A DNA stretch of 9,693 nucleotides, taken from the IMG/VR virus record IMGVR_UViG_2554235125_000002; one strand, 5' to 3'. The stretch comes from a virus. Lineage: Duplodnaviria > Heunggongvirae > Uroviricota > Caudoviricetes. Below the pieces are notes generated by a model, which saw only the letters and a list, made by a program, of their open reading frames with translations, ran no database searches and was not told where the DNA came from. This document shows positions 2 to 9,693 of the stretch, in pieces. The translations under genes and the position numbers were made by a program. Each line of letters begins with the position of its first letter. Position 1 is the first letter of the stretch.

Positions 2-181
2 ACGCAGATTGAGCAGGAAGTGCTTACCACCTGGCCCACGGAGGCAATTGCTCAGGCTGAAAACGTGGTGTTACGTCTGTCCGGAATGTCTGAGTTTGTT
101 GTGAATAATGCCCCTGAACAGGCAGATGACGCCGGGCCTGCAGAGCCTGTTTCTGCGGGAAAGTGTTCGACGGTGAGCTGA
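2..181 (+). CDS. G: Tail assembly chaperone G, C-terminal fragment (5' end lies outside the window)
   Basis: Frame beginning at nt 2 translates to ...IEQEVLTTWPTEAIAQAENVVLRLSGMSEFVVNNAPEQADDAGPAEPVSAGKCSTVS*, with stop TGA at 179-181. I recognise this as the C-terminus of lambda gpG. It contains the slippery heptamer at 157-163 and is followed by the T frame. Confidence 0.85.
   Translation, partial: TQIEQEVLTTWPTEAIAQAENVVLRLSGMSEFVVNNAPEQADDAGPAEPVSAGKCSTVS
157..163 (+). other. Programmed -1 ribosomal frameshift slippery heptamer G_GGA_AAG (G to G-T fusion)
   Basis: Heptamer GGGAAAG sits in the G zero frame as GCG GGA AAG, 16 nt upstream of the G stop. The -1 frame stays open from nt 163 to 597 and encodes a T-like sequence with no ATG or SD of its own. 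This matches the known lambda G/GT frameshift arrangement. Confidence 0.8.
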
Positions 182-597
182 GTTTTGCCCTGAAACTGGC
201 GCGTGAAATGGGGCGACCCGACTGGCGCGCCATGCTTGCCGGGATGTCATCCACGGAGTATGCCGACTGGCACCGCTTTTACAGTACCCATTATTTTCAT
301 GATGTTCTGCTGGATATGCACTTTTCCGGGCTGACGTACACCGTGCTCAGCCTGTTTTTCAGCGATCCGGAGATGCATCCGCTGGATTTCAGTCTGCTGA
401 ACCGGCGCGAGGCTGACGAAGAGCCTGAAGATGATGTGCTGATGCAGAAAGCGGCAGGGCTTGCCGGAGGCGTTCGTTTTGGCCCGGACGGGAATGAAGT
501 TATCCCCGCTTCCCCGGATGTGGCGGACATGACGGAGGATGACGTAATGCTGATGACAGTATCAGAAGGGATCGCAGGAGGAGTCCGGTATGGCTGA
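163..597 (+). CDS. T: Tail assembly chaperone T segment, expressed only as a G-T fusion via -1 frameshift (no independent start)
   Basis: The ORF track's 144-aa product (VFDGELSFALKLAREMGRPDWRAMLAGMSSTEYADWHRFYSTHYFHDVLLDMHFSGL...GIAGGVRYG*) is in the -1 frame relative to G. The track's start at 163 is the GTG immediately after the slip site, not a true initiation codon. Stop TGA at 595-597 overlaps the H start. Confidence 0.85.
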   Translation: MFDGELSFALKLAREMGRPDWRAMLAGMSSTEYADWHRFYSTHYFHDVLLDMHFSGLTYTVLSLFFSDPEMHPLDFSLLNRREADEEPEDDVLMQKAAGLAGGVRFGPDGNEVIPASPDVADMTEDDVMLMTVSEGIAGGVRYG

Positions 598-3139
598 ACC
601 GGTAGGCGATCTGGTCGTTGATTTAAGTCTGGATGCGGCCAGATTTGACGAGCAGATGGCCAGAGTCAGGCGTCATTTTTCCGGTACGGAAAGTGATGCG
701 AAAAAAACAGCGGCAGTCGTTGAACAGTCGCTGAGCCGACAGGCACTGGCTGCACAGAAAGCGGGGATTTCCGTCGGGCAGTATAAAGCCGCCATGCGTA
801 TGCTGCCTGCACAGTTCACCGACGTGGCCACGCAGCTTGCAGGCGGGCAAAGTCCGTGGCTGATCCTGCTGCAACAGGGTGGTCAGGTGAAGGACTCCTT
901 CGGTGGGATGATCCCCATGTTCAGGGGGCTTGCCGGTGCGATCACCCTGCCGATGGTCGGGGCCACCTCGCTGGCGGTGGCGACCGGTGCGCTGGCGTAT
1001 GCCTGGTATCAGGGCAACTCAACCCTGTCCGATTTCAACAAAACGCTGGTCCTTTCCGGCAATCAGTCGGGTCTGACGGCAGATCGTATGCTGGTCCTGT
1101 CCAGAGCCGGGCAGGCGGCAGGGCTGACGTTTAACCAGACCAGCGAGTCACTCAGCGCACTGGTTAAGGCGGGAGTAAGCGGTGAGGCTCAGATTGCATC
1201 CATCAGCCAGAGTGTGGCGCGTTTCTCCTCTGCATCCGGCGTGGAGGTGGACAAGGTCGCTGAAGCCTTCGGGAAGCTGACCACAGACCCGACGTCGGGG
1301 CTGACAGCGATGGCGCGTCAGTTCCATAACGTGACGGCGGAGCAGATTGCGTATGTTGCTCAGTTGCAGCGTTCCGGCGATGAAGCCGGGGCATTGCAGG
1401 CAGCGAACGAGGCCGCAACGAAAGGGTTTGATGACCAGACCCGCCGCCTGAAAGAGAACATGGGCACGCTGGAGACCTGGGCAGACAGGACAGCACGGGC
1501 ATTCAAATCCATGTGGGATGCGGTACTGGATATTGGTCGTCCTGATACCGCTCAGGAGATGCTGATTAAGGCAGAGGCTGCGTTTAAGAAAGCGGACGAC
1601 ATCTGGAATCTGCGCAAGGATGATTATTTTGTTAACGATGAAGCGCGGGCGCGTTACTGGGATGATCGTGAAAAGGCCCGTCTTGCGCTTGAAGCCGCCA
1701 GAAAGAAGGCTGAACAGCAGAGTCAACAGGACAAAAATGCGCAGCAGCAGAGCGATACCGAAGCGTCACGGCTGAAATATACCGAAGAGGCGCAGAAGGC
1801 TTACGAACGGCTGCAGACGCCGCTGGAGAAATATACCGCCCGTCAGGAAGAACTGAACAAGGCACTGAAAGACGGGAAAATCCTGCAGGCAGATTACAAC
1901 ACGCTGATGGCAGCGGCGAAAAAGGATTATGAATCGGCGCTGAAAAAGCCGAAACAGTCCGGCGTGAGGGGGTCTGCGGGCGATCGTCAGGAAGACAGTG
2001 CTCATGCTGCCCTGCTGACGCTTCAGGCAGAACTCCGGACGCTGGAGAAGCATGCCGGAGCAAATGAGAAAATCAGCCAGCAGCGCCGGGATTTGTGGAA
2101 GGCGGAGAGTCAGTTCGCGGTACTGGAGGAGGCGGCGCAACGTCGCCAGCTGTCTGCACAGGAGAAATCCCTGCTGGCGCATAAAGATGAGACGCTGGAG
2201 TACAAACGCCAGCTGGCTGCACTTGGCGACAAGGTTACGTATCAGGAGCGCCTGAACGCGCTGGCGCAGCAGGCGGATAAATTCGCACAGCAGCAACGGG
2301 CAAAACGGGCCGCCATTGATGCGAAAAGCCGGGGGCTGACTGACCGGCAGGCAGAACGGGAAGCCACGGAACAGCGCCTGAAGGAACAGTATGGCGATAA
2401 TCCGCTGGCGCTGAATAACGTCATGTCAGAGCAGAAAAAGACCTGGGCGGCTGAAGACCAGCTTCGCGGGAGCTGGATGGCAGGCCTGAAGTCCGGCTGG
2501 AGTGAGTGGGAAGAGAGCGCCACGGACAGTATGTCGCAGGTAAAAAGTGCAGCCACGCAGACCTTTGATGGTATTGCACAGAATATGGCAGCGATGCTGA
2601 CCGGCAGTGAACAGAACTGGCGCAGCTTCACCCGTTCCGTGCTGTCCATGATGACAGAAATTCTGCTTAAGCAGGCAATGGTGGGGATTGTCGGAAGTAT
2701 AGGCAGCGCCATTGGCGGCGGCGCATCAGCGTCAGGCGGCACAGCCATTCAGGCCGCTGCGGCGAAATTCCATTTTGCAACCGGAGGATTTACGGGAACC
2801 GGCGGCAAATATGAGCCAGCGGGGATTGTTCACCGTGGTGAATTTGTCTTCACGAAAGAGGCAACCAGCCGGATTGGCGTGGGGAATCTTTACCGGCTGA
2901 TGCGCGGCTATGCCACCGGCGGTTATGTCGGTACACCGGGCAGCATGGCGGACAGTCGGTCGCAGGCGTCCGGGAAGTTTGAGCAGAATAACCATGTGGT
3001 GATTAACAACGACGGCACGAACGGTCAGATAGGGCCACAGGCGCTGAAGGCGGTTTATGACGTAGCCCGTAAGGCGGCAATGGATGTTGTGACCGGGCAG
3101 ATGCGTGATGGTGGTCTGTTCTCCGGAGGTGGACGATGA
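590..3139 (+). CDS. H: Tail tape measure protein (849 aa)
   Basis: ATG at 590 is preceded by SD AGGAGGA (576-582). The product starts MAEPVGDLVVDLSLDAARFDEQMARVRRHFSG..., which I recognise as lambda gpH, and ends ...MRDGGLFSGGGR. It has a long charged, Ala/Gln/Lys/Glu-rich central region typical of tape measure proteins and a Gly-rich C-terminal segment. Its start overlaps the T stop (ATGGCTGA). Confidence 0.96.
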   Translation: MAEPVGDLVVDLSLDAARFDEQMARVRRHFSGTESDAKKTAAVVEQSLSRQALAAQKAGISVGQYKAAMRMLPAQFTDVATQLAGGQSPWLILLQQGGQVKDSFGGMIPMFRGLAGAITLPMVGATSLAVATGALAYAWYQGNSTLSDFNKTLVLSGNQSGLTADRMLVLSRAGQAAGLTFNQTSESLSALVKAGVSGEAQIASISQSVARFSSASGVEVDKVAEAFGKLTTDPTSGLTAMARQFHNVTAEQIAYVAQLQRSGDEAGALQAANEAATKGFDDQTRRLKENMGTLETWADRTARAFKSMWDAVLDIGRPDTAQEMLIKAEAAFKKADDIWNLRKDDYFVNDEARARYWDDREKARLALEAARKKAEQQSQQDKNAQQQSDTEASRLKYTEEAQKAYERLQTPLEKYTARQEELNKALKDGKILQADYNTLMAAAKKDYESALKKPKQSGVRGSAGDRQEDSAHAALLTLQAELRTLEKHAGANEKISQQRRDLWKAESQFAVLEEAAQRRQLSAQEKSLLAHKDETLEYKRQLAALGDKVTYQERLNALAQQADKFAQQQRAKRAAIDAKSRGLTDRQAEREATEQRLKEQYGDNPLALNNVMSEQKKTWAAEDQLRGSWMAGLKSGWSEWEESATDSMSQVKSAATQTFDGIAQNMAAMLTGSEQNWRSFTRSVLSMMTEILLKQAMVGIVGSIGSAIGGGASASGGTAIQAAAAKFHFATGGFTGTGGKYEPAGIVHRGEFVFTKEATSRIGVGNLYRLMRGYATGGYVGTPGSMADSRSQASGKFEQNNHVVINNDGTNGQIGPQALKAVYDVARKAAMDVVTGQMRDGGLFSGGGR

Positions 3140-3465
3140 AAACCTTCCGCTGGAAAGTGAAACCCGGTATGGATGTGGCTTCGGCCCCTTCTGTAAGAAA
3201 GGTGCGCTTTGGTGATGGCTATTCCCAGCGAGCGCCTGCCGGGCTGAATGCCAACCTGAAAACGTACAGCGTGACGCTTTCTGTCCCCCGTGAGGAGGCC
3301 ACGGTACTGGAGTCGTTTCTGGAAGAGCACGGGGGCTGGAAAGCCTTTCTGTGGACGCCGCCTTATGAGTGGCGGCAGATAAAGGTGACCTGCGCAAAAT
3401 GGTCGTCGCGGGTCAGTATGCTGCGTGTTGAGTTCAGCGCAGAGTTTGAACAGGTGGTGAACTGA
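3136..3465 (+). CDS. M: Minor tail protein M (109 aa)
   Basis: ATG at 3136 overlaps the H stop (ATGA), with SD GGAGGTGG at 3125-3132. The product MKTFRWKVKPGMDVASAPSVRKVRFGDGYSQRAPAGLNANLKTYSVTLSV... is recognised as lambda gpM. Confidence 0.95.
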   Translation: MKTFRWKVKPGMDVASAPSVRKVRFGDGYSQRAPAGLNANLKTYSVTLSVPREEATVLESFLEEHGGWKAFLWTPPYEWRQIKVTCAKWSSRVSMLRVEFSAEFEQVVN

Positions 3466-4193
3466 TGCAGGATATCCGGCAGGAAACGCTGAATGAATGC
3501 ACTCGTGCGGAGCAGTCGGCCAGCGTGGTGCTCTGGGAAATCGATCTGACAGAGGTCGGTGGAGAACGTTATTTTTTCTGTAATGAGCAGAACGAAAAAG
3601 GTGAGCCGGTCACCTGGCAGGGGAGGCAGTATCAGGCGTATCCCATTCAGGGGAGGCAGTATCAGGCGTATCCCATTCAGGGGAGCGGTTTTGAACTGAA
3701 TGGCAAAGGCACCAGTACGCGGCCCACGCTGACGGTTTCTAACCTGTACGGTATGGTCACCGGGATGGCGGAAGATCTGCAGAGTCTGGTCGGCGGAACG
3801 GTGGTCCGGCGTAAGGTTTACGCCCGTTTTCTGGATGCGGTGAACTTCGTCAACGGAAACAGAGACGCCGATCCGGAGCAGGAGGTGATCAGCCGCTGGC
3901 GCATCGAGCAGTGCAGCGAACTGAGCGCGGTCAGTGCCTCTTTTGTACTGTCCACACCGACTGAAACGGATGGCGCTGTTTTTCCGGGGCGTATCATGCT
4001 GGCCAACACCTGCACCTGGACCTATCGCGGCGATGAGTGCGGTTATAGCGGTCCGGCGGTCGCGGATGAATATGACCAGCCGACGTCCGATATCACGAAG
4101 GATAAATGCAGCAAATGCCTGAGCGGCTGTAAGTTTCGCAATAACGTCGGCAACTTTGGCGGCTTCCTTTCCATTAACAAACTTTCGCAGTAA
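3465..4193 (+). CDS. L: Minor tail / tail tip protein L (242 aa, includes a 10-aa in-frame duplication)
   Basis: ATG at 3465 overlaps the M stop (TGATG), with an AGGTGG SD upstream. The product MQDIRQETLNECTRAEQSASVVLWEIDLTEVGGERYFFCNEQNEKGEPVTWQG... is recognised as lambda gpL. The C-terminus carries the cysteine pattern C-x9-C ... C-x2-C-x3-C. Stop TAA at 4191-4193. Confidence 0.95.
   Translation: MQDIRQETLNECTRAEQSASVVLWEIDLTEVGGERYFFCNEQNEKGEPVTWQGRQYQAYPIQGRQYQAYPIQGSGFELNGKGTSTRPTLTVSNLYGMVTGMAEDLQSLVGGTVVRRKVYARFLDAVNFVNGNRDADPEQEVISRWRIEQCSELSAVSASFVLSTPTETDGAVFPGRIMLANTCTWTYRGDECGYSGPAVADEYDQPTSDITKDKCSKCLSGCKFRNNVGNFGGFLSINKLSQ
3621..3680 (+). repeat. Perfect 30-bp tandem direct duplication (2 copies) inside L, in frame, flanked by CAGGGGAG microhomology
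   Basis: 3621-3650 and 3651-3680 are both gggaggcagtatcaggcgtatcccattcag. The motif CAGGGGAG occurs at 3618-3625, 3648-3655 and 3678-3685. Translation gives RQYQAYPIQG twice. Confidence 0.95.
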
Positions 4194-4197
4194 TCCC

Positions 4198-4941
4198 ATG
4201 ACAGAGACAGAATCAGCGATTCTGGCGCACGCCCGGCGATGTGCGCCAGCGGAGTCGTGCGGCTTCGTGGTGAGAGCGCCGGAGGGGGAAAGATATTTTC
4301 CCTGCGTGAATATTTCCGGTGAGCCGGAGGATTATTTCCGGATGGCTCCGGAGGACTGGCTGCAGGCAGAGATGCAGGGTGAGATTGTGACACTGGTCCA
4401 CAGTCATCCCGGTGGTCTGCCCTGGCTGAGTGAGGCTGACCGGCGGCTGCAGGTGCAGAGTGATTTGCCGTGGTGGCTGGTCTGCCGGGGGGCGATTCAC
4501 AAGTTCCGCTGTGTGCCGCATCTCACCGGGCGTCGCTTTGAGCACGGGGTGACGGACTGTTACACGCTGTTCCGGGATGCTTATCATCTGGCGGGGATTG
4601 AGATGCCGGATTTTCATCGCGGGGATGACTGGTGGCGTCACGGCCAGAATCTCTATCTGGATAATCTGGAGGCCACAGGGCTGTATCAGGTGCCGTTGTC
4701 ATCAGCACAACCGGGCGATGTGCTGCTGTGCTGTTTTGGTTCATCGGTGCCGAATCATGCCGCCATTTACTGTGGTGACGGCGAGCTGCTGCACCATATT
4801 CCTGAACAACTGAGTAAACGAGAGAGGTATACCGACAAATGGCAGCGACGCACACACTCCCTCTGGCGTCACCGGGAATGGCACGCATCTGCCTTTACGG
4901 GGATTTACAACGATTTGGCCGCCGCATCGGCCTTCGTGTGA
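4198..4941 (+). CDS. K: Tail tip assembly protein K (247 aa; N-terminal MPN/JAMM-like domain plus C-terminal NlpC/P60-like domain)
   Basis: ATG at 4198 lies 5 nt after the L stop, and the frame is open to TGA 4939-4941. The product MTETESAILAHARRCAPAESCGFVV... contains an exact JAMM-type motif H-S-H-x7-S-x2-D (HSHPGGLPWLSEAD). The C-terminal half has Cys/His residues in NlpC/P60-like context (DCYTLF ... NHAAIY). An internal ATG at 4342 would give the 199-aa form. Confidence 0.88.
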   Translation: MTETESAILAHARRCAPAESCGFVVRAPEGERYFPCVNISGEPEDYFRMAPEDWLQAEMQGEIVTLVHSHPGGLPWLSEADRRLQVQSDLPWWLVCRGAIHKFRCVPHLTGRRFEHGVTDCYTLFRDAYHLAGIEMPDFHRGDDWWRHGQNLYLDNLEATGLYQVPLSSAQPGDVLLCCFGSSVPNHAAIYCGDGELLHHIPEQLSKRERYTDKWQRRTHSLWRHREWHASAFTGIYNDLAAASAFV

Positions 4942-5510
4942 AAACGGGGGCTGAAGCCATCCGCGCACTGGCCACACAGCTCCCTGCGTTTCGTCAGAAA
5001 CTGAGCGACGGCTGGTATCAGGTACGGATTGCCGGGCGGGACGTCAGCACGTCCGGATTAACGGCGCAGTTACATGAGACTCTGCCTGATGGCGCTGTGA
5101 TTCATATTGTTCCCAGAGTCGCCGGGGCCAAGTCAGGTGGTGTATTCCAGATTGTCCTGGGAGCAGCCGCCATTGCCGGATCATTCTTTACCGCCGGAGC
5201 CACCCTTGCAGCATGGGGGGCAGCCATTGGGGCCGGTGGTATGACCGGCATCCTGTTTTCTCTCGGTGCCAGTATGGTGCTCGGTGGTGTGGCGCAGATG
5301 CTGGCACCGAAAGCCAGAACTCCCCGTACACAGACAACGGATAACGGTAAGCAGAACACGTATTTCTCCTCACTGGATAACATGGTTGCCCAGGGCAATG
5401 TTCTGCCTGTTCTGTACGGTGAAATGCGCGTGGGGTCACGCGTGATTTCTCAGGAGATCAGCACGGCAGACGAAGGGGATGGTGGTCAGGTTGTGGTGAT
5501 TGGTCGCTGA
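4839..5510 (+). CDS. I: Tail assembly protein I (223 aa)
   Basis: ATG at 4839 starts inside the 3' end of K in a different frame (103-nt overlap). The product MAATHTLPLASPGMARICLYGDLQRFGRRIGLRVKTGAEAIRALATQ... is recognised as lambda gpI, with a Gly/Ala-rich hydrophobic segment in its C-terminal half. Stop TGA at 5508-5510. Confidence 0.93.
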   Translation: MAATHTLPLASPGMARICLYGDLQRFGRRIGLRVKTGAEAIRALATQLPAFRQKLSDGWYQVRIAGRDVSTSGLTAQLHETLPDGAVIHIVPRVAGAKSGGVFQIVLGAAAIAGSFFTAGATLAAWGAAIGAGGMTGILFSLGASMVLGGVAQMLAPKARTPRTQTTDNGKQNTYFSSLDNMVAQGNVLPVLYGEMRVGSRVISQEISTADEGDGGQVVVIGR

Positions 5511-5528
5511 TGCAAAATGTTTTATGTG

Positions 5529-5548
5529 AAACCGCCTCCGGGCGGTTT
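5529..5548 (+). other. Perfect 8-bp stem-loop (AAACCGCC / tccg / GGCGGTTT) in the I-J intergenic region; possible weak terminator, attenuator or RNA-stability hairpin
   Basis: Inverted repeat 5529-5536 and 5541-5548 with a 4-nt loop, followed by a T-rich stretch (ttttatcgtttat). It lies 18 nt after the I stop and about 22 nt before the J ATG. Confidence 0.4.
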
Positions 5549-5570
5549 TATCGTTTATGGATCATGACGA

Positions 5571-8500
5571 ATGGGTAAAGGCAGCAGTAAGGGGCATACC
5601 CCGCGCGAAGCGAAGGACAACCTGAAATCATCCCAGATGCTGAGCGTGATAGACGCCATCAGTGAAGGGCCGGTTGAAGGTCCGGTGGACGGATTAAAAA
5701 GTGTGCTGCTGAACAGTACGCCAGTGCTGGACAGTGAGGGGAATACCAATATCTCCGGCGTCACGGTGGTGTTCCGGGCAGGTGAGCAGGAGCAGACACC
5801 GCCGGAGGGGTTTGAATCCTCCGGCTCCGAGACGGTGCTGGGTACGGAAGTGAAATACGACACGCAGATCACCCGCACCATCACGTCGGCAAACATCGAC
5901 CGTCTGCGCTTTACCTTCGGTGTGCAGGCACTGGTGGAAACCACCTCAAAGGGAGACAGGAATCCGTCGGAAGTCCGTCTGCTGGTTCAGATACAGCGTA
6001 ACGGTGGCTGGGTGACGGAAAAAGACATCACCATTAAGGGCAAAACCACCTCGCAGTATCTGGCCTCGGTGGTGGTGGATAACCTGCCTCCGCGCCCGTT
6101 CAATATCCGGATGCGCAGGATGACACCGGACAGCACCACAGACCAGCTGCAGAACAAAACGCTCTGGTCGTCATACACCGAAATCATCGATGTGAAACAG
6201 TGCTACCCGAACACGGCACTGGTCGGCGTGCAGGTGGATTCGGAGCAGTTCGGCAGCCAGCAGGTGAGCCGTAATTATCATCTTCGCGGGCGCATTCTGC
6301 AGGTGCCGTCGAACTATAACCCGCAGACGCGGCAATACAGCGGTATCTGGGACGGAACGTTTAAGCCGGCATACAGCAACAACATGGCCTGGTGTCTGTG
6401 GGATATGCTGACCCATCCGCGCTACGGCATGGGGAAACGTCTTGGTGCGGCAGATGTGGATAAATGGACGCTGTATGTCATCGGCCAGTATTGCGACCAG
6501 TCGGTGCCGGACGGTTTTGGCGGCACGGAGCCGCGCATCACCTGTAATGCGTACCTGACCACGCAGCGTAAGGCGTGGGATGTTCTCAGCGATTTCTGCT
6601 CGGCGATGCGCTGTATGCCGGTATGGAACGGACAGACGCTGACGTTCGTGCAGGACCGACCGTCGGATAAGGTGTGGATCTATAACCGCAGTAATGTGGT
6701 GATGCCGGATGATGGCGCGCCGTTCCGCTACAGTTTCAGCGCCCTGAAGGACCGCCATAATGCCGTTGAGGTGAACTGGATTGACCCGGATAACGGCTGG
6801 GAGACGGCGACAGAGCTTGTTGAAGATACGCAGGCCATTCCCCGTTACGGTCGTAACGTCACGAAGATGGATGCCTTTGGCTGTACCAGCCGGGGGCAGG
6901 CACACCGCGCCGGGCTGTGGCTGATTAAAACGGAGCTGCTGGAAACGCAGACCGTGGACTTCAGCGTGGGCGCAGAAGGGCTTCGCCATGTACCGGGCGA
7001 TGTTATTGAAATCTGTGATGATGACTATGCGGGTATCAGCACCGGCGGGCGCGTGCTGGCGGTGAACAGCCAGACGCGGACACTGACGCTCGACCGTGAA
7101 ATCACGCTGCCATCCTCCGGTACCACGCTGATAAGCCTGGTTGACGGAAGTGGCAATCCGGTCAGCGTGGAGGTTCAGTCCGTCACCGACGGCGTGAAGG
7201 TAAAAGTGAGCCGTGTTCCTGACGGTGTTGCTGAATACAGCGTATGGGGGCTGAAGCTGCCGACGCTGCGCCAGCGACTGTTCCGCTGCGTGAGTATCCG
7301 TGAGAACGACGACGGCACGTATGCCATCACTGCCGTGCAGCATGTACCGGAAAAAGAAGCCATCGTGGATAACGGGGCGCACTTTGACGGCGACCAGAGC
7401 GGCACGGTGAATGGTGTCACGCCGCCAGCAGTGCAACACCTGACCGCAGAAGTCACCGCAGACAGCGGGGAATACCAGGTGCTGGCGCGCTGGGATACGC
7501 CGAAGGTGGTGAAGGGCGTGAGCTTTATGCTTCGCCTGACCGTGGCAGCGGATGACGGCAGTGAGCGGCTGGTCAGCACAGCCCGGACGACGGAAACCAC
7601 ATACCGCCTCAGGCAGCTGGCGCTGGGGAACTACAGGCTGACAGTCCGGGCGGTAAATGCGTGGGGACAGCAGGGCGATCCGGCATCGGTATCGTTCCGG
7701 ATTGCCGCACCGGCAGCGCCGTCTCGGATTGAGCTGACGCCGGGCTATTTTCAGATAACCGCCACGCCGCATCTTGCGGTTTATGATCCGACGGTACAGT
7801 TTGAGTTCTGGTTCTCGGAAAAGCGGGTTGCTGATACCAGACAGGTTGAAACCAGCGCGCGTTATCTTGGTACGGGGCTGTACTGGATAGCTGCCAGTAT
7901 CAATATCAAACCGGGCCATGATTATTCTTTTTACATCCGCAGTGTGAACACCGTTGGCAAATCGGCATTCGTGGAGGCTGTTGGCCAGCCGAGTGATGAT
8001 GCATCCGGCTATCTGAATTTTTTCAAAGGAGAGATAGGGAAAACCCATCTGGCTCAGGAGTTGTGGACGCAGATTGATAACGGTCAGCTTGCGCCTGACC
8101 TGGCGGAAATCAGAACGTCCATCACGGATGTCAGTAATGAAATCACGCAGACCGTCAATAAGAAACTGGAAGACCAGAGTGCGGCAATCCAGCAGATACA
8201 GAAGGTTCAGGTTGATACAAATAATAACCTGAACAGCATGTGGGCTGTGAAGCTGCAGCAGATGCAGGACGGACGCCTTTATATCGCGGGTATTGGTGCC
8301 GGTATTGAGAATACCCCTGACGGTATGCAGAGTCAGGTGCTGCTGGCGGCGGACAGGATTGCGATGATTAATCCTGCGAATGGCAACACAAAGCCGATGT
8401 TTGTTGGTCAGGGCGATCAGATATTCATGAACGAAGTGTTCCTGAAATATCTGACGGCTCCCACCATTACCAGCGGCGGTAATCCTCCGGCATTTTCCCT

Positions 8501-9050
8501 GACACCGGACGGGCGGCTGACGGCGAAAAATGCCGATATTAGCGGTAACGTGAATGCGAACTCCGGGACGCTCAACAACGTCACGATTAACGAGAACTGC
8601 CGGGTTCTGGGAAAACTGTCCGCGAACCAGATTGAAGGCGATCTCGTTAAAACAGTGGGCAAAGCTTTCCCCCGGGACTCCCGTGCACCGGAGCGGTGGC
8701 CATCAGGGACCATTACCGTCAGGGTTTATGACGATCAGCCGTTTGACCGGCAAATTGTTATTCCGGCGGTGGCATTCAGTGGCGCTAAACATGAGCAAGA
8801 TCATACTGATATCTACTCCTCATGCCGTCTGATAGTACGAAAAAACGGTGCTGAAATTTATAACCGAACGGCTCTGGATAATACGCTGATATATACGGGT
8901 GTTATTGATATGCCTGCAGGCAGTGGTGTAATGACACTGGAATTTTCTGTATCGGCATGGCTGGTAAATGGCTGGTATCCCACAGCAAGTATCAGCGATT
9001 TGCTGGTTGTGGTGATGAAGAAAGCCACTGCAGGCATCATGATTAGCTGA
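5571..9050 (+). CDS. J: Central tail fibre / host specificity protein J (1159 aa)
   Basis: The 1159-aa ORF starts [54 protein letters not shown]..., recognised as lambda gpJ. The N-terminal ~800 aa appear near-identical to lambda J as I recall it. The C-terminal ~340 aa diverge but keep the conserved block ...[45 protein letters not shown].... Stop TGA at 9048-9050. Confidence 0.95.
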
Positions 9051-9068
9051 ATTTTATAACCCAGATAC

Positions 9069-9097
9069 GGGCGCCAGAAATGGCGCCTTTTTTATTT
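9069..9097 (+). terminator. Rho-independent terminator after J
   Basis: GC-rich hairpin GGCGCC-agaaat-GGCGCC (9070-9087) is immediately followed by TTTTTTATTT (9088-9097), 20 nt downstream of the J stop. Confidence 0.75.
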
Positions 9098-9108
9098 GTG
9101 GAGTGAAT

Positions 9109-9693
9109 ATGGCAGTACAGATTTCAGGTGTGCTGAAAGATGGTGCGGGAAAACCAATACAGAACTGCACTATTCAACTGAAGGCAAAGCGTAACAGCAC
9201 CACGGTACTGGTGAACACGGTGGCCTCTGAAAATCCGGATGAAGCCGGGCGTTACAGCATGGATGTTGAGCATGGCCAGTACAGCGTCACCCTGCTGGTT
9301 GAAGGTTTTCCGCCTTCACATGCCGGAACCATTACCGTCTATGAAGGTTCCAGACCAGGTACGCTGAATGATTTTCTCGGTGCCATGACGGAAGATGATG
9401 TCATGCCGGAGGCATTGCGTCGTTTTGAGGCAATGGTGGAAGAAGCGGCACGCAACGCCGAAGCCGCCTCTCAGAGCGCAGCGGCGGCAAAGAAATCCGA
9501 AACTGCAGCGGCATCATCGAAGAACGCGGCGAAAACCTCAGAAACGAATGCAGCTAACAGCGCACAGGCGGCAGCGTCCTCGCAGACTGCATCGGCAAAC
9601 TCCGCGACAGCAGCCAAAAAATCAGAAACCAACGCGAAAAACAGCGAGACAGCCGCAAAGACGAGCGAAACCAACGCAAAGTCCAGCCAGACG
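9109..9693 (+). CDS. stf: Side tail fibre protein (Stf-like), N-terminal part; 3' end lies outside the window
   Basis: ATG at 9109 with SD GGAG (9099-9102). The product MAVQISGVLKDGAGKPIQNCTIQLKAKRNSTTVLVNTVASENPDEAGRYSMDVEHGQYSVTLLVEGFPPSHAGTITVYEGSRPGTLNDFLGAMTEDD... is recognised as the conserved N-terminal domain of lambda Stf. It is followed by an Ala/Ser/Thr/Lys-rich quasi-repeat region (KKSETAAASSKNAAKTSETNA...). The frame is open to the window end. Confidence 0.85.
   Translation, partial: MAVQISGVLKDGAGKPIQNCTIQLKAKRNSTTVLVNTVASENPDEAGRYSMDVEHGQYSVTLLVEGFPPSHAGTITVYEGSRPGTLNDFLGAMTEDDVMPEALRRFEAMVEEAARNAEAASQSAAAAKKSETAAASSKNAAKTSETNAANSAQAAASSQTASANSATAAKKSETNAKNSETAAKTSETNAKSSQT

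Follow-up and report, generated by a model that had tools for sequence, protein, structure and literature searches.

A mosaic central tail fibre gene J in a lambdoid phage sequence, with a receptor-binding domain of probable OmpC specificity

J proteins of lambdoid phages and their receptors

The tip attachment protein gpJ of lambda (NP_040600; structures 8IYK, 8XCK and 8XCJ) has LamB as its receptor, and LamB is also the native receptor of phage 21. There is ample documentation that E. coli prophages exchange the J 'specificity region' in modules, and the specificity hot spots of lambda J include residues 1048, 1049 and 1107, with D1107 being critical in the gain of OmpF use by lambda (PMC6646904). 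Receptor use is labile: one J mutation gives phage 21 the use of OmpC. OmpC-binding tips are found in A8 gpJ (PDB 9wca, 9wcb), whose structure was solved with EDL933 OmpC, and in phage 434 J. The A8 receptor-binding domain (RBD), which binds OmpC, is 80% identical (101/127) to the RBD of phage 21, which binds LamB.

The RBD type that concerns us here has only one member with a measured receptor, 1A2, and that receptor is OmpC. Eligo's 'gpJ 1A2' is an engineered chimera in which the RBD is fused to lambda gpJ at residue 964 (PMC11338833). On lambda particles it mediated delivery into MG1655 ΔlamB ΔompC via 20 of 23 plasmid-encoded OmpC variants; permissive variants gave at least 76% GFP-positive cells at the top MOI, variants G1, G2 and G40 at most 2%, and variant G17 98.3% (PMC11338833). 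G17 is the EDL933 allele, a name taken from the title of 9wcb. K-12 OmpC is unusable by 1A2 (PMC11338833), whereas A8 accepts it. The delivery figures quoted for 1A2 were taken from the source data of Fig. 1b and Extended Data Figs 1 and 8 of PMC11338833.

Here we describe the J gene in a stretch of 9,693 nucleotides (the window) from the virus record IMGVR_UViG_2554235125_000002. The coordinates of its features are given in Table 1.

Mosaic structure of J and its relatives

The ORF map of the window showed the tail genes in the order H-M-L-K-I-J followed by stf, which places J where lambda has gpJ/TipJ. The region from T/H through J was collinear with lambda at a 95.6% match in blastn, in which positions 5-8067 aligned at 95.6% identity and 8237-8587 at 75.8%, with no alignment for 8068-8236 and 8588-9050. 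All six gpJ Pfam families exceeded their curated cut-offs in the lambda order (FNIII-A_GpJ, residues 86-207; Phage-tail_3, 330-498; Ig_J, 610-714; Ig_J_second, 716-818; Phage_Tail_Tip, 872-1000; Ig_GpJ_C, 1029-1159), so that J has the full gpJ architecture. BLASTP with the whole protein gave 82% identity to lambda gpJ (NC_001416), the alignment being broken by a cluster of gaps beyond about residue 835. The two proteins agree in domain order and in the fold of the RBD, and the HepS-trigger phenylalanine is kept (F924 in lambda, F952 in the window).

Table 1. Features of the J region, in window positions.
Feature	Position	Strand	Basis or remark
Gene J (central tail fibre / tip attachment protein), intact ORF	5571..9050	+	1159 aa
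Lambda-type module: hub domains, FNIII-1, most of FNIII-2	5571..7978	+	4.6% nt mismatch to lambda
First breakpoint interval, relative to lambda, 434 and 2G7b	7935..7979	+	Mismatch pattern, max-chi-square
Alpha-helical shaft (AHS), aa 819-871	8025..8183	+	Alignment; name from PMC11101478
Central straight fibre (beta-prism, PF09327), aa 872-1000, phage-21 type	8184..8570	+	Pfam, alignment
Conserved hinge block FLKYL...NANSGTL, aa 957-1001	8439..8573	+	Common to all J types
Second breakpoint interval, relative to phage 21	8621..8666	+	Mismatches start at 8621, dense from 8666
RBD (Ig-like, PF12421 Ig_GpJ_C), aa 1029-1159	8655..9047	+	VT1-Sakai / 1A2 / PhiR46_1 type
Codons Q1076-D1077, hot-spot loop = lambda 1048-1049	8796..8801	+	K-E in 1A2/VT1-Sakai
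Codons S1118-G-V1120, DMPAG-x-G-x loop	8922..8930	+	H-G-H in 1A2/VT1-Sakai
Codon G1134 = lambda D1107	8970..8972	+	N in 1A2/VT1-Sakai, D in PhiR55_1
Intrinsic terminator after J	9069..9098	+	GGGCGCC-AGAAAT-GGCGCC, then T run
stf (side tail fibre gene) start, leaves window	9109..9693	+	Directly after J, no lom between

Residues 1-804 of J were identical to lambda gpJ at 779 of 804 positions (96.9%). In a MAFFT alignment of the J genes, mismatches to lambda were few up to position 7934, absent at 7935-7978 and dense from 7979. The max-chi-square method placed the breakpoint at 7979, where mismatch rose from 4.6% on the left to 44% on the right (chi2 = 842). The breakpoint interval corresponds to residues 789-803, where the second FNIII/Ig domain ends, and the first protein differences of the diverged block are at residues 806-807. 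An earlier note on this DNA, made from the letters alone, had described near-identity to lambda up to about residue 820 and a mosaic breakpoint near 8030. The strong early identity and the breakpoint are both real, but divergence begins some residues earlier, at 806-807, and the proposed site lies about 50 nt too far downstream of the max-chi-square position; there is also a second breakpoint.

This second breakpoint appeared in the comparison with phage 21 (central tail fibre, OL657228), to which window positions 4974-8670 are 95.9% identical in nucleotides. Max-chi-square placed it at 8666, with 4.5% mismatch on one side and 45% on the other (chi2 = 703). Bases 7979-8665 encode the helical shaft and the beta-prism fibre, each 98% identical to phage 21, and bases 8666-9050 the Ig-like RBD. 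The two breakpoints, one relative to lambda and one relative to phage 21, indicate that the diverged third of J consists of two exchanged modules, the shaft plus fibre and the RBD. A crossover between 2G7b and the window was found at about 8393, just 5' of the conserved hinge block. This block, the 45-residue stretch that the earlier note had reported as retained, is indeed present and nearly identical to lambda, and it acts as a recombination joint.

This analysis demonstrated the mosaic structure, domain architecture and fold of J, and the mosaic pattern is not attributable to chance. The mosaicism is real but ordinary, being of a kind already documented. We propose that homologous recombination among lambdoid prophages would have assembled J from three modules: a lambda-type hub and FNIII body (residues 1 to about 803), a long alpha-helical shaft and beta-prism central fibre of phage-21 / EHEC-prophage type (about 804-1030), and an Ig-like C-terminal RBD of VT1-Sakai / '1A2' / PhiR46_1 type (about 1030-1159).

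The shaft carries 28 residues that lambda lacks (836-856 and 860-866; nt 8076-8168). It is 44% identical to lambda over 25 alignable residues, 98% to phage 21 and 100% to PhiR46_1, and single-sequence AF2 predicted helices at 811-817, 821-836 and 842-879 within residues 800-880. The central fibre is 67% identical to lambda and 98% to phage 21. Phage 21 also shares with the window the arrangement J-terminator-stf without lom, its annotated terminator being at the same place after J. The window is 83.7% identical to lambda at 9092-9458, around the start of stf (orf-401), and in the genomes that are 100% identical here stf is annotated as 'prophage tail fiber N-terminal domain-containing protein'.

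PhiR46_1 (PV340565; recorded host E. coli ECOR13) has a J of 1159 residues with the same three-module layout. Its shaft and fibre are 100% identical to the window at the protein level, its RBD is 99% identical (only M1157S), and nt 8671-9050 are 100% identical, whereas the N-terminal two-thirds show 3-4% nucleotide divergence and the neck (residues 1002-1028) has four amino acid differences. PhiR46_1 carries lom between J and stf, which the window does not. E. coli B REL606 (a remnant at the DLP12 site), E. coli C and ATCC 8739 are 100% identical to the window over 8030-9693. The REL606 remnant diverges 5' of 8030 (97.8% identity over 6201-9693), and its J is truncated at the N-terminus and directly follows a terminase small-subunit gene; for these reasons E. 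coli B itself was rejected as the source of the window. Over its full length the window matched no complete RefSeq E. coli genome at more than 97.6%, and a 48-nt word spanning its private Y786S codon had no exact counterpart in genome_contigs or viral_contigs. In the VT1-Sakai (Sp15) record, J is split into two ORFs by mutation. The shaft and the receptor-binding tip of the window J occur in many E. coli prophages; its exact C-terminus recurs in numerous sequenced genomes, and the finding as such is not new.

The receptor-binding domain and its probable receptor

The last 131 residues of J (1029-1159) are 40% identical to lambda, in agreement with the divergence of the C-terminal third claimed by the earlier note, which had named near-identity of this end to lambda J as the result that would speak against it. 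The RBD is thus not of the LamB-binding lambda type (lambda residues 1002-1132, loops L1-L4). Nor is it of the LamB-binding phage 21 type (61%, with indels of 4 and 5 residues at two loops) or of the OmpC-binding 434 / WGPS6 (phi330-like) type (41% to both). Identity to the A8 tip is 58%; A8 and 434 have tips of the same fold and probably of the same receptor class at these low identities.

The alignment with the 1A2 type was free of gaps and all loops were of equal length. Identity of the RBD was 99% to PhiR46_1 and 95% to VT1-Sakai, 2G7b and 1A2 (95-96%), and the RBD region matched VT1-Sakai at 151 of 158 residues and 1A2 at 139 of 145 readable positions. The 1A2 DNA sequence came from the OCR-damaged text of the Supplementary Information of PMC11338833 and was decoded by a frameshift-tolerant protein-to-DNA dynamic-programming alignment that recovered 150 of 158 residues; the comparison base is 145 residues, since 13 of 158 were unreadable or dropped as obvious OCR artefacts (5 of the 13). 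At all 145 readable residues 1A2 equals VT1-Sakai J.

The window differs from 1A2/VT1-Sakai by seven substitutions (Q1076K, D1077E, T1109S, S1118H, V1120H, G1134N and M1157T). The hot-spot residues (equivalents of lambda 1012, 1048/49, 1077/78 and 1107) are therefore only partly shared: positions 1040 and 1105/1106 are unchanged, and the differing residues 1076, 1077 and 1134 are the counterparts of lambda 1048, 1049 and 1107. Among 19 cluster representatives of the same type, residues 1076-1081 were the most polymorphic stretch. The allele Q1076, D1077, S1118, V1120, G1134 is also that of PhiR46_1 and of the remnants in E. coli B and C.

We also modelled residues 987-1159 with AF2 (mean pLDDT 81). 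The top Foldseek matches were 9wcb (A8 gpJ with OmpC; TM 0.73) and 8xck/8xcj (lambda gpJ with or without LamB; TM 0.72-0.74). Fold search was rejected as a receptor discriminator, since LamB-bound and OmpC-bound RBDs matched equally well.

The identity of 95-96% to the OmpC-dependent 1A2 RBD makes OmpC, in alleles other than that of K-12, the probable receptor of the window J, rather than LamB. OmpC use by the window allele, with its seven substitutions, would follow from homology to a tested protein. The near-identical RBD of PhiR46_1, a complete phage genome according to its record, differs at residue 1157 only, and we count this as support for the viability of the window RBD. A 2026 receptor-prediction preprint covers Drexlerviridae GpJ, and the RBD type of the window falls outside that coverage. 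The earlier note's suggestion of an altered receptor specificity gains support from these comparisons; it had named no receptor, and OmpC is now the best-supported candidate as judged from sequence. The lability of receptor use across the J superfamily counts against a firm assignment.

Continued LamB binding, with the divergence due to drift among alleles or to adaptation to variant forms of LamB, appears very improbable. Phage 21 does use LamB natively with a shaft and fibre 98% identical to those of the window and an RBD 61% identical, and the modelled fold fits the LamB-bound RBD of lambda as well as the OmpC-bound RBD of A8. However, 1A2 works in ΔlamB strains given a suitable OmpC, and in wild-type MG1655, a host with both LamB and K-12 OmpC, it gave 5.2% delivery compared with 97.7% for wild-type lambda gpJ (PMC11338833). 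Two of the four hot-spot loops also carry the indels relative to phage 21 (4 residues at lambda 1012, 5 residues at lambda 1048-49). That the RBD binds another outer-membrane protein, such as OmpF, or a range of OmpC alleles markedly unlike that of 1A2, is suggested by the location of the substitutions in specificity loops, three of seven being at equivalents of lambda 1048, 1049 and 1107. Polymorphism within the RBD type is also highest at these positions, consistent with diversifying selection, and lambda and phage 21 needed only a few mutations to gain OmpF or OmpC as a further receptor. We nevertheless hold this reading to be unlikely, because backbone, loop lengths and 151 of 158 residues are shared with VT1-Sakai/1A2, and because receptors gained in laboratory evolution were first added to the old one and not substituted for it. 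It is similarly doubtful that the window allele stands apart in function as a specificity variant within the 1A2 type; if it did, the substitutions at the equivalents of lambda 1048, 1049 and 1107 would alter the accepted OmpC alleles or the porin, and the locus would exemplify in nature the fine-scale arms race over receptors that is known from laboratory evolution of lambda and phage 21.

A different kind of objection is that J may lie in a decaying, non-inducible prophage, in which case receptor specificity would be without present function. The identical 3' 1.66 kb sits in a clearly defective remnant in REL606, and gene L of the window contains a perfect 30-bp tandem duplication unseen in the listed complete genomes. 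However, the window has open frames of essentially lambda-like length for H, M, L, K, I and J, and the duplication in L keeps the frame (10 aa). We regard decay as possible, on the unlikely side of the balance. A three-module mosaic J with a VT1-Sakai/1A2-type RBD, most likely binding OmpC and triggering as in lambda, is the reading that we consider probable.

Possible mode of action and implications

By analogy with the solved structures of lambda and A8 gpJ, a J trimer would carry three RBDs, and their distal loops would dock into a porin trimer in the outer membrane. This contact would spread the RBDs, twist the fibre and flip the helical shaft, upon which the tail tip would open and DNA would be ejected, as in the opening mechanism from cryo-EM work on lambda gpJ-LamB (PMC11101478). 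Trimeric assembly and receptor-triggered opening of the window J are thus suggested by the lambda structures, and the signal-transduction mechanism of lambda may hold for it as well.

This case shows that the receptor of a lambdoid J tip can now be assigned from sequence alone with fair confidence, thanks to tests of natural RBD types in lambda chimeras and to structures of such types with porins. Such assignment has its limit where, as here, the few residues separating an allele from the tested one are known specificity hot spots. For annotation, LamB binding should not be assumed for J proteins with an RBD of this type.

Tail operon and the lambda-side breakpoint in J

A lambda-like tail operon fills the window, and positions 5-8067 are collinear with lambda (NC_001416) at 95.6% nucleotide identity in blastn.

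Features of the tail operon and domains of J
Feature	Position	Strand	Remark
End of G/T	window start	+	precedes H
H	590-3139	+	
M	between H and L	+	
L	3465-4193	+	
Tandem duplication in L	3618-3685		perfect, 30 bp; TRF: period 30, 2.3 copies, 100% match
K	between L and I	+	
I	4839-5510	+	
J	5571-9050	+	1159 aa
Ig_J_second	aa 716-818 of J		Pfam
Phage_Tail_Tip	aa 872-1000 of J		Pfam
Ig_GpJ_C	aa 1029-1159 of J		Pfam, 'C-terminal receptor binding domain'
Antisense ORF inside J	6171-8048	minus	ATG-initiated, 625 aa
J-stf gap	9051-9108		without lom; holds only terminator and stf ribosome-binding region
Intrinsic terminator	9069-9088		plus T run
stf (side tail fibre gene), start only	from 9109	+	
Imperfect tandem repeat, stf N-terminal coding region	9625-9681		21 bp, 2.8 copies, 70% match

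J was 82% identical to lambda gpJ overall (BLASTP), with 779 of residues 1-804 identical (96.9%). In blastn, 8068-8236 and 8588-9050 did not align to lambda, and 8237-8587 aligned at 75.8% identity. When nine J genes were aligned with MAFFT, mismatches to lambda were few up to 7934, zero at 7935-7978 and dense from 7979, where the max-chi-square analysis also placed the breakpoint (mismatch 4.6% on its left and 44% on its right, chi2 = 842). The sharp switch from near-identity to divergence that the earlier note had described was thus borne out, but the breakpoint is some 50 nt upstream of the proposed 8030, and the new block shows its earliest protein changes at residues 806-807, not 820. The conserved block that it had quoted (aa 957-1001) is real and is kept relative to lambda.

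Codon 786 of J (7926-7928) carries Y786S, in the second FNIII/Ig domain. The change is absent from 7 of the 8 compared J genes covering the position, BP-4795 having W there, and a 48-nt word with this codon gave zero exact matches in genome_contigs and viral_contigs. Complete RefSeq E. coli genomes matched the whole window at 97.6% at most.

In lambda, 434, PhiR46_1, VT1-Sakai, 2G7b, WGPS6 and BP-4795, lom stands between J and stf, whereas phage 21 lacks it there, as does the window. The duplication in gene L gives an in-frame 10-aa repeat (QGRQYQAYPI-QGRQYQAYPI), so that gpL has 242 aa, compared with 232 in lambda and PhiR46_1. A 151-nt query from gene L covered a 121-nt span in two pieces in the best complete-genome matches listed, indicating that these genomes are without the duplication, which looks recent and private to the source of the window. 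The antisense ORF most likely arises as a side effect of codon bias in the G+C-rich sense frame.

Modules of the diverged third and their distribution

The lambda cryo-EM papers name FNIII-2, the alpha-helical shaft (AHS), the central straight fibre (CSF) and the receptor-binding domain (RBD) in this part of gpJ (PMC11101478). The AHS of the window (aa 819-871) has 28 residues more than that of lambda, at aa 836-856 and 860-866; its identity to lambda is 44% where the two can be aligned, and its identity to phage 21 is 98%. For the CSF these values are 67% and 98%. Single-sequence AF2 predicted helices across aa 811-879, by which the insertion makes the helical shaft longer. The long AHS is a standard variant, since it is also present in phage 21, PhiR46_1, WGPS6 and VT1-Sakai. 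The RBD is 40% identical to that of lambda, 41% to 434 and WGPS6, 58% to the engineered OmpC-binding chimera A8, 61% to phage 21, 95% to VT1-Sakai and 2G7b, and 99% to PhiR46_1.

Against phage 21, a second breakpoint was found at 8666 (max-chi-square, mismatch 4.5% versus 45%, chi2 = 703), and the sequence of 2G7b, whose shaft is of the lambda type, joins that of the window at about 8393. Together with the breakpoint at 7979, these crossovers make J a three-module mosaic. The conserved hinge block is the region between about 8393 and 8666, and it is the joint at which RBDs are exchanged. In line with this, Maddamsetti et al. aligned a 'specificity region' (960-1132) and reported a putative recombination breakpoint at position 49 of that alignment (PMC6646904).

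Stretches 100% identical to window 8030-9693 occur in E. coli B (REL606 and relatives), E. coli C, ATCC 8739 and others, and 2,550 of the 5,426 complete E. coli genomes cover 80% or more of this region. The REL606 copy lies within the prophage remnant at the DLP12 site. Its J matches the window at 100% over the last 1.0 kb, as does the stf behind it, so a remnant with the window's RBD type is present in laboratory B strains; over window 6201-9693 identity is 97.8%, with the divergence upstream of 8030. In this REL606 stretch (18175-21021), J is N-terminally truncated and directly follows a terminase small-subunit gene. Phage records with this RBD type (at least 88% amino-acid identity) include PhiR46_1, PhiR49_2, PPompW prophages, many Stx1a/Stx2a phages, WGPS2, JLK-2012 and VT1-Sakai. 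Already known are the exchange of J specificity regions as modules, this RBD type and the exact C-terminal sequence.

Receptor of the J tip

An AF2 model of aa 987-1159 from a 41-sequence alignment (mean pLDDT 81) was a beta-sandwich, and this predicted structure confirms the gpJ RBD fold. Its top Foldseek matches were A8 gpJ with and without OmpC (9wcb and 9wca, TM 0.73) and lambda gpJ with and without LamB (8xck and 8xcj, TM 0.72-0.74), so the fold match does not separate LamB from OmpC receptors. Lambda uses LamB (PMC11101478), as does native phage 21, in which a single J mutation adds OmpC use; 434, phi330 and the Eligo lambda chimeras A8 and 1A2 use OmpC. A PDB sequence search placed the window C-terminus nearer to 'A8 gpJ 713' (9wca) than to lambda, although the RBDs are still only about 60% identical.

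The closest experimental counterpart is 1A2, whose recoded DNA sequence is printed in the Supplementary Information of PMC11338833. We decoded it by frameshift-tolerant alignment because bases were dropped in the OCR text; 13 of 158 positions were unreadable or set aside. The 145 readable positions were all identical to the VT1-Sakai J C-terminus, and 139 of them to the window (VT1-Sakai versus window, 151/158, gap-free). On lambda particles, 1A2 delivered a GFP cosmid into MG1655 ΔlamB ΔompC carrying plasmid OmpC for 20 of 23 OmpC variants, including 98.3% on G17, which the title of PDB 9wcb identifies as the EDL933 allele. Delivery was 2% or less on G1, G2 and G40, and these failures provide an internal control that delivery depends on OmpC. 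Into wild-type MG1655, carrying both LamB and K-12 OmpC, delivery was 5.2% with 1A2 and 97.7% with wild-type lambda gpJ. These values come from the source data of Fig. 1b and Extended Data Figs 1 and 8 (PMC11338833) and not from those of Extended Data Fig. 2, for which the source-data file gives the panel B numbers again under panel C. These experiments establish the RBD type as an OmpC binder that, as tested with 1A2, does not use K-12 OmpC and shows no efficient LamB use. The altered-receptor interpretation of the earlier note is thereby supported and sharpened, given also an RBD only 40% identical to that of lambda. Weak circumstantial support for the receptor call comes from the recorded hosts, which are ECOR13 or E. 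coli C for phages with this RBD type; PhiR/mEp phages recorded on K-12 (PhiR34_1, mEp332) have a 434-type RBD.

By its likeness to 1A2, the window RBD probably uses OmpC. It differs from 1A2/VT1-Sakai by Q1076K, D1077E, T1109S, S1118H, V1120H, G1134N and M1157T. Three of these positions, 1076, 1077 and 1134, align with lambda 1048, 1049 and 1107. Two residues are critical for lambda to gain OmpF use, and 1107 is one of them; 1048-1049 forms one of four hot spots of indels and entropy that have been read as surface loops (PMC6646904). Across 19 representatives of clusters within the RBD type (at least 85% identity), polymorphism was highest at 1076-1081, 1118, 1120, 1131 and 1134, a pattern expected under diversifying selection on receptor-contact loops. 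Such substitutions favor a shifted OmpC allele range or another porin, which we nevertheless regard as rather unlikely. LamB is very improbable as the receptor, considering the poor delivery of 1A2 into LamB-bearing MG1655. The RBDs of A8 (OmpC) and phage 21 (LamB) are 80% identical (101/127) and share their indel pattern, and at that distance receptor class is unreadable from family membership. This similarity, the hot-spot substitutions and the one-mutation gain of OmpC in phage 21 keep the OmpC call short of certainty.

Proposed triggering, and HepS

With OmpC as the probable receptor, and by analogy with lambda (PMC11101478), the RBD loops would enter the porin lumen and the three RBDs would then spread. 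New hydrogen bonds would compact and twist the CSF, the AHS would flip, the FNIII strings would dissociate, and the hub would open. HepS, a prophage abortive-infection nuclease, is triggered by F924 of lambda J, in the motif QIFMN. The equivalent F952 (8424-8426) is conserved in the window, whereas Gifsy J proteins have isoleucine at this position. Judged by this residue, the J protein of the window would be a HepS trigger.
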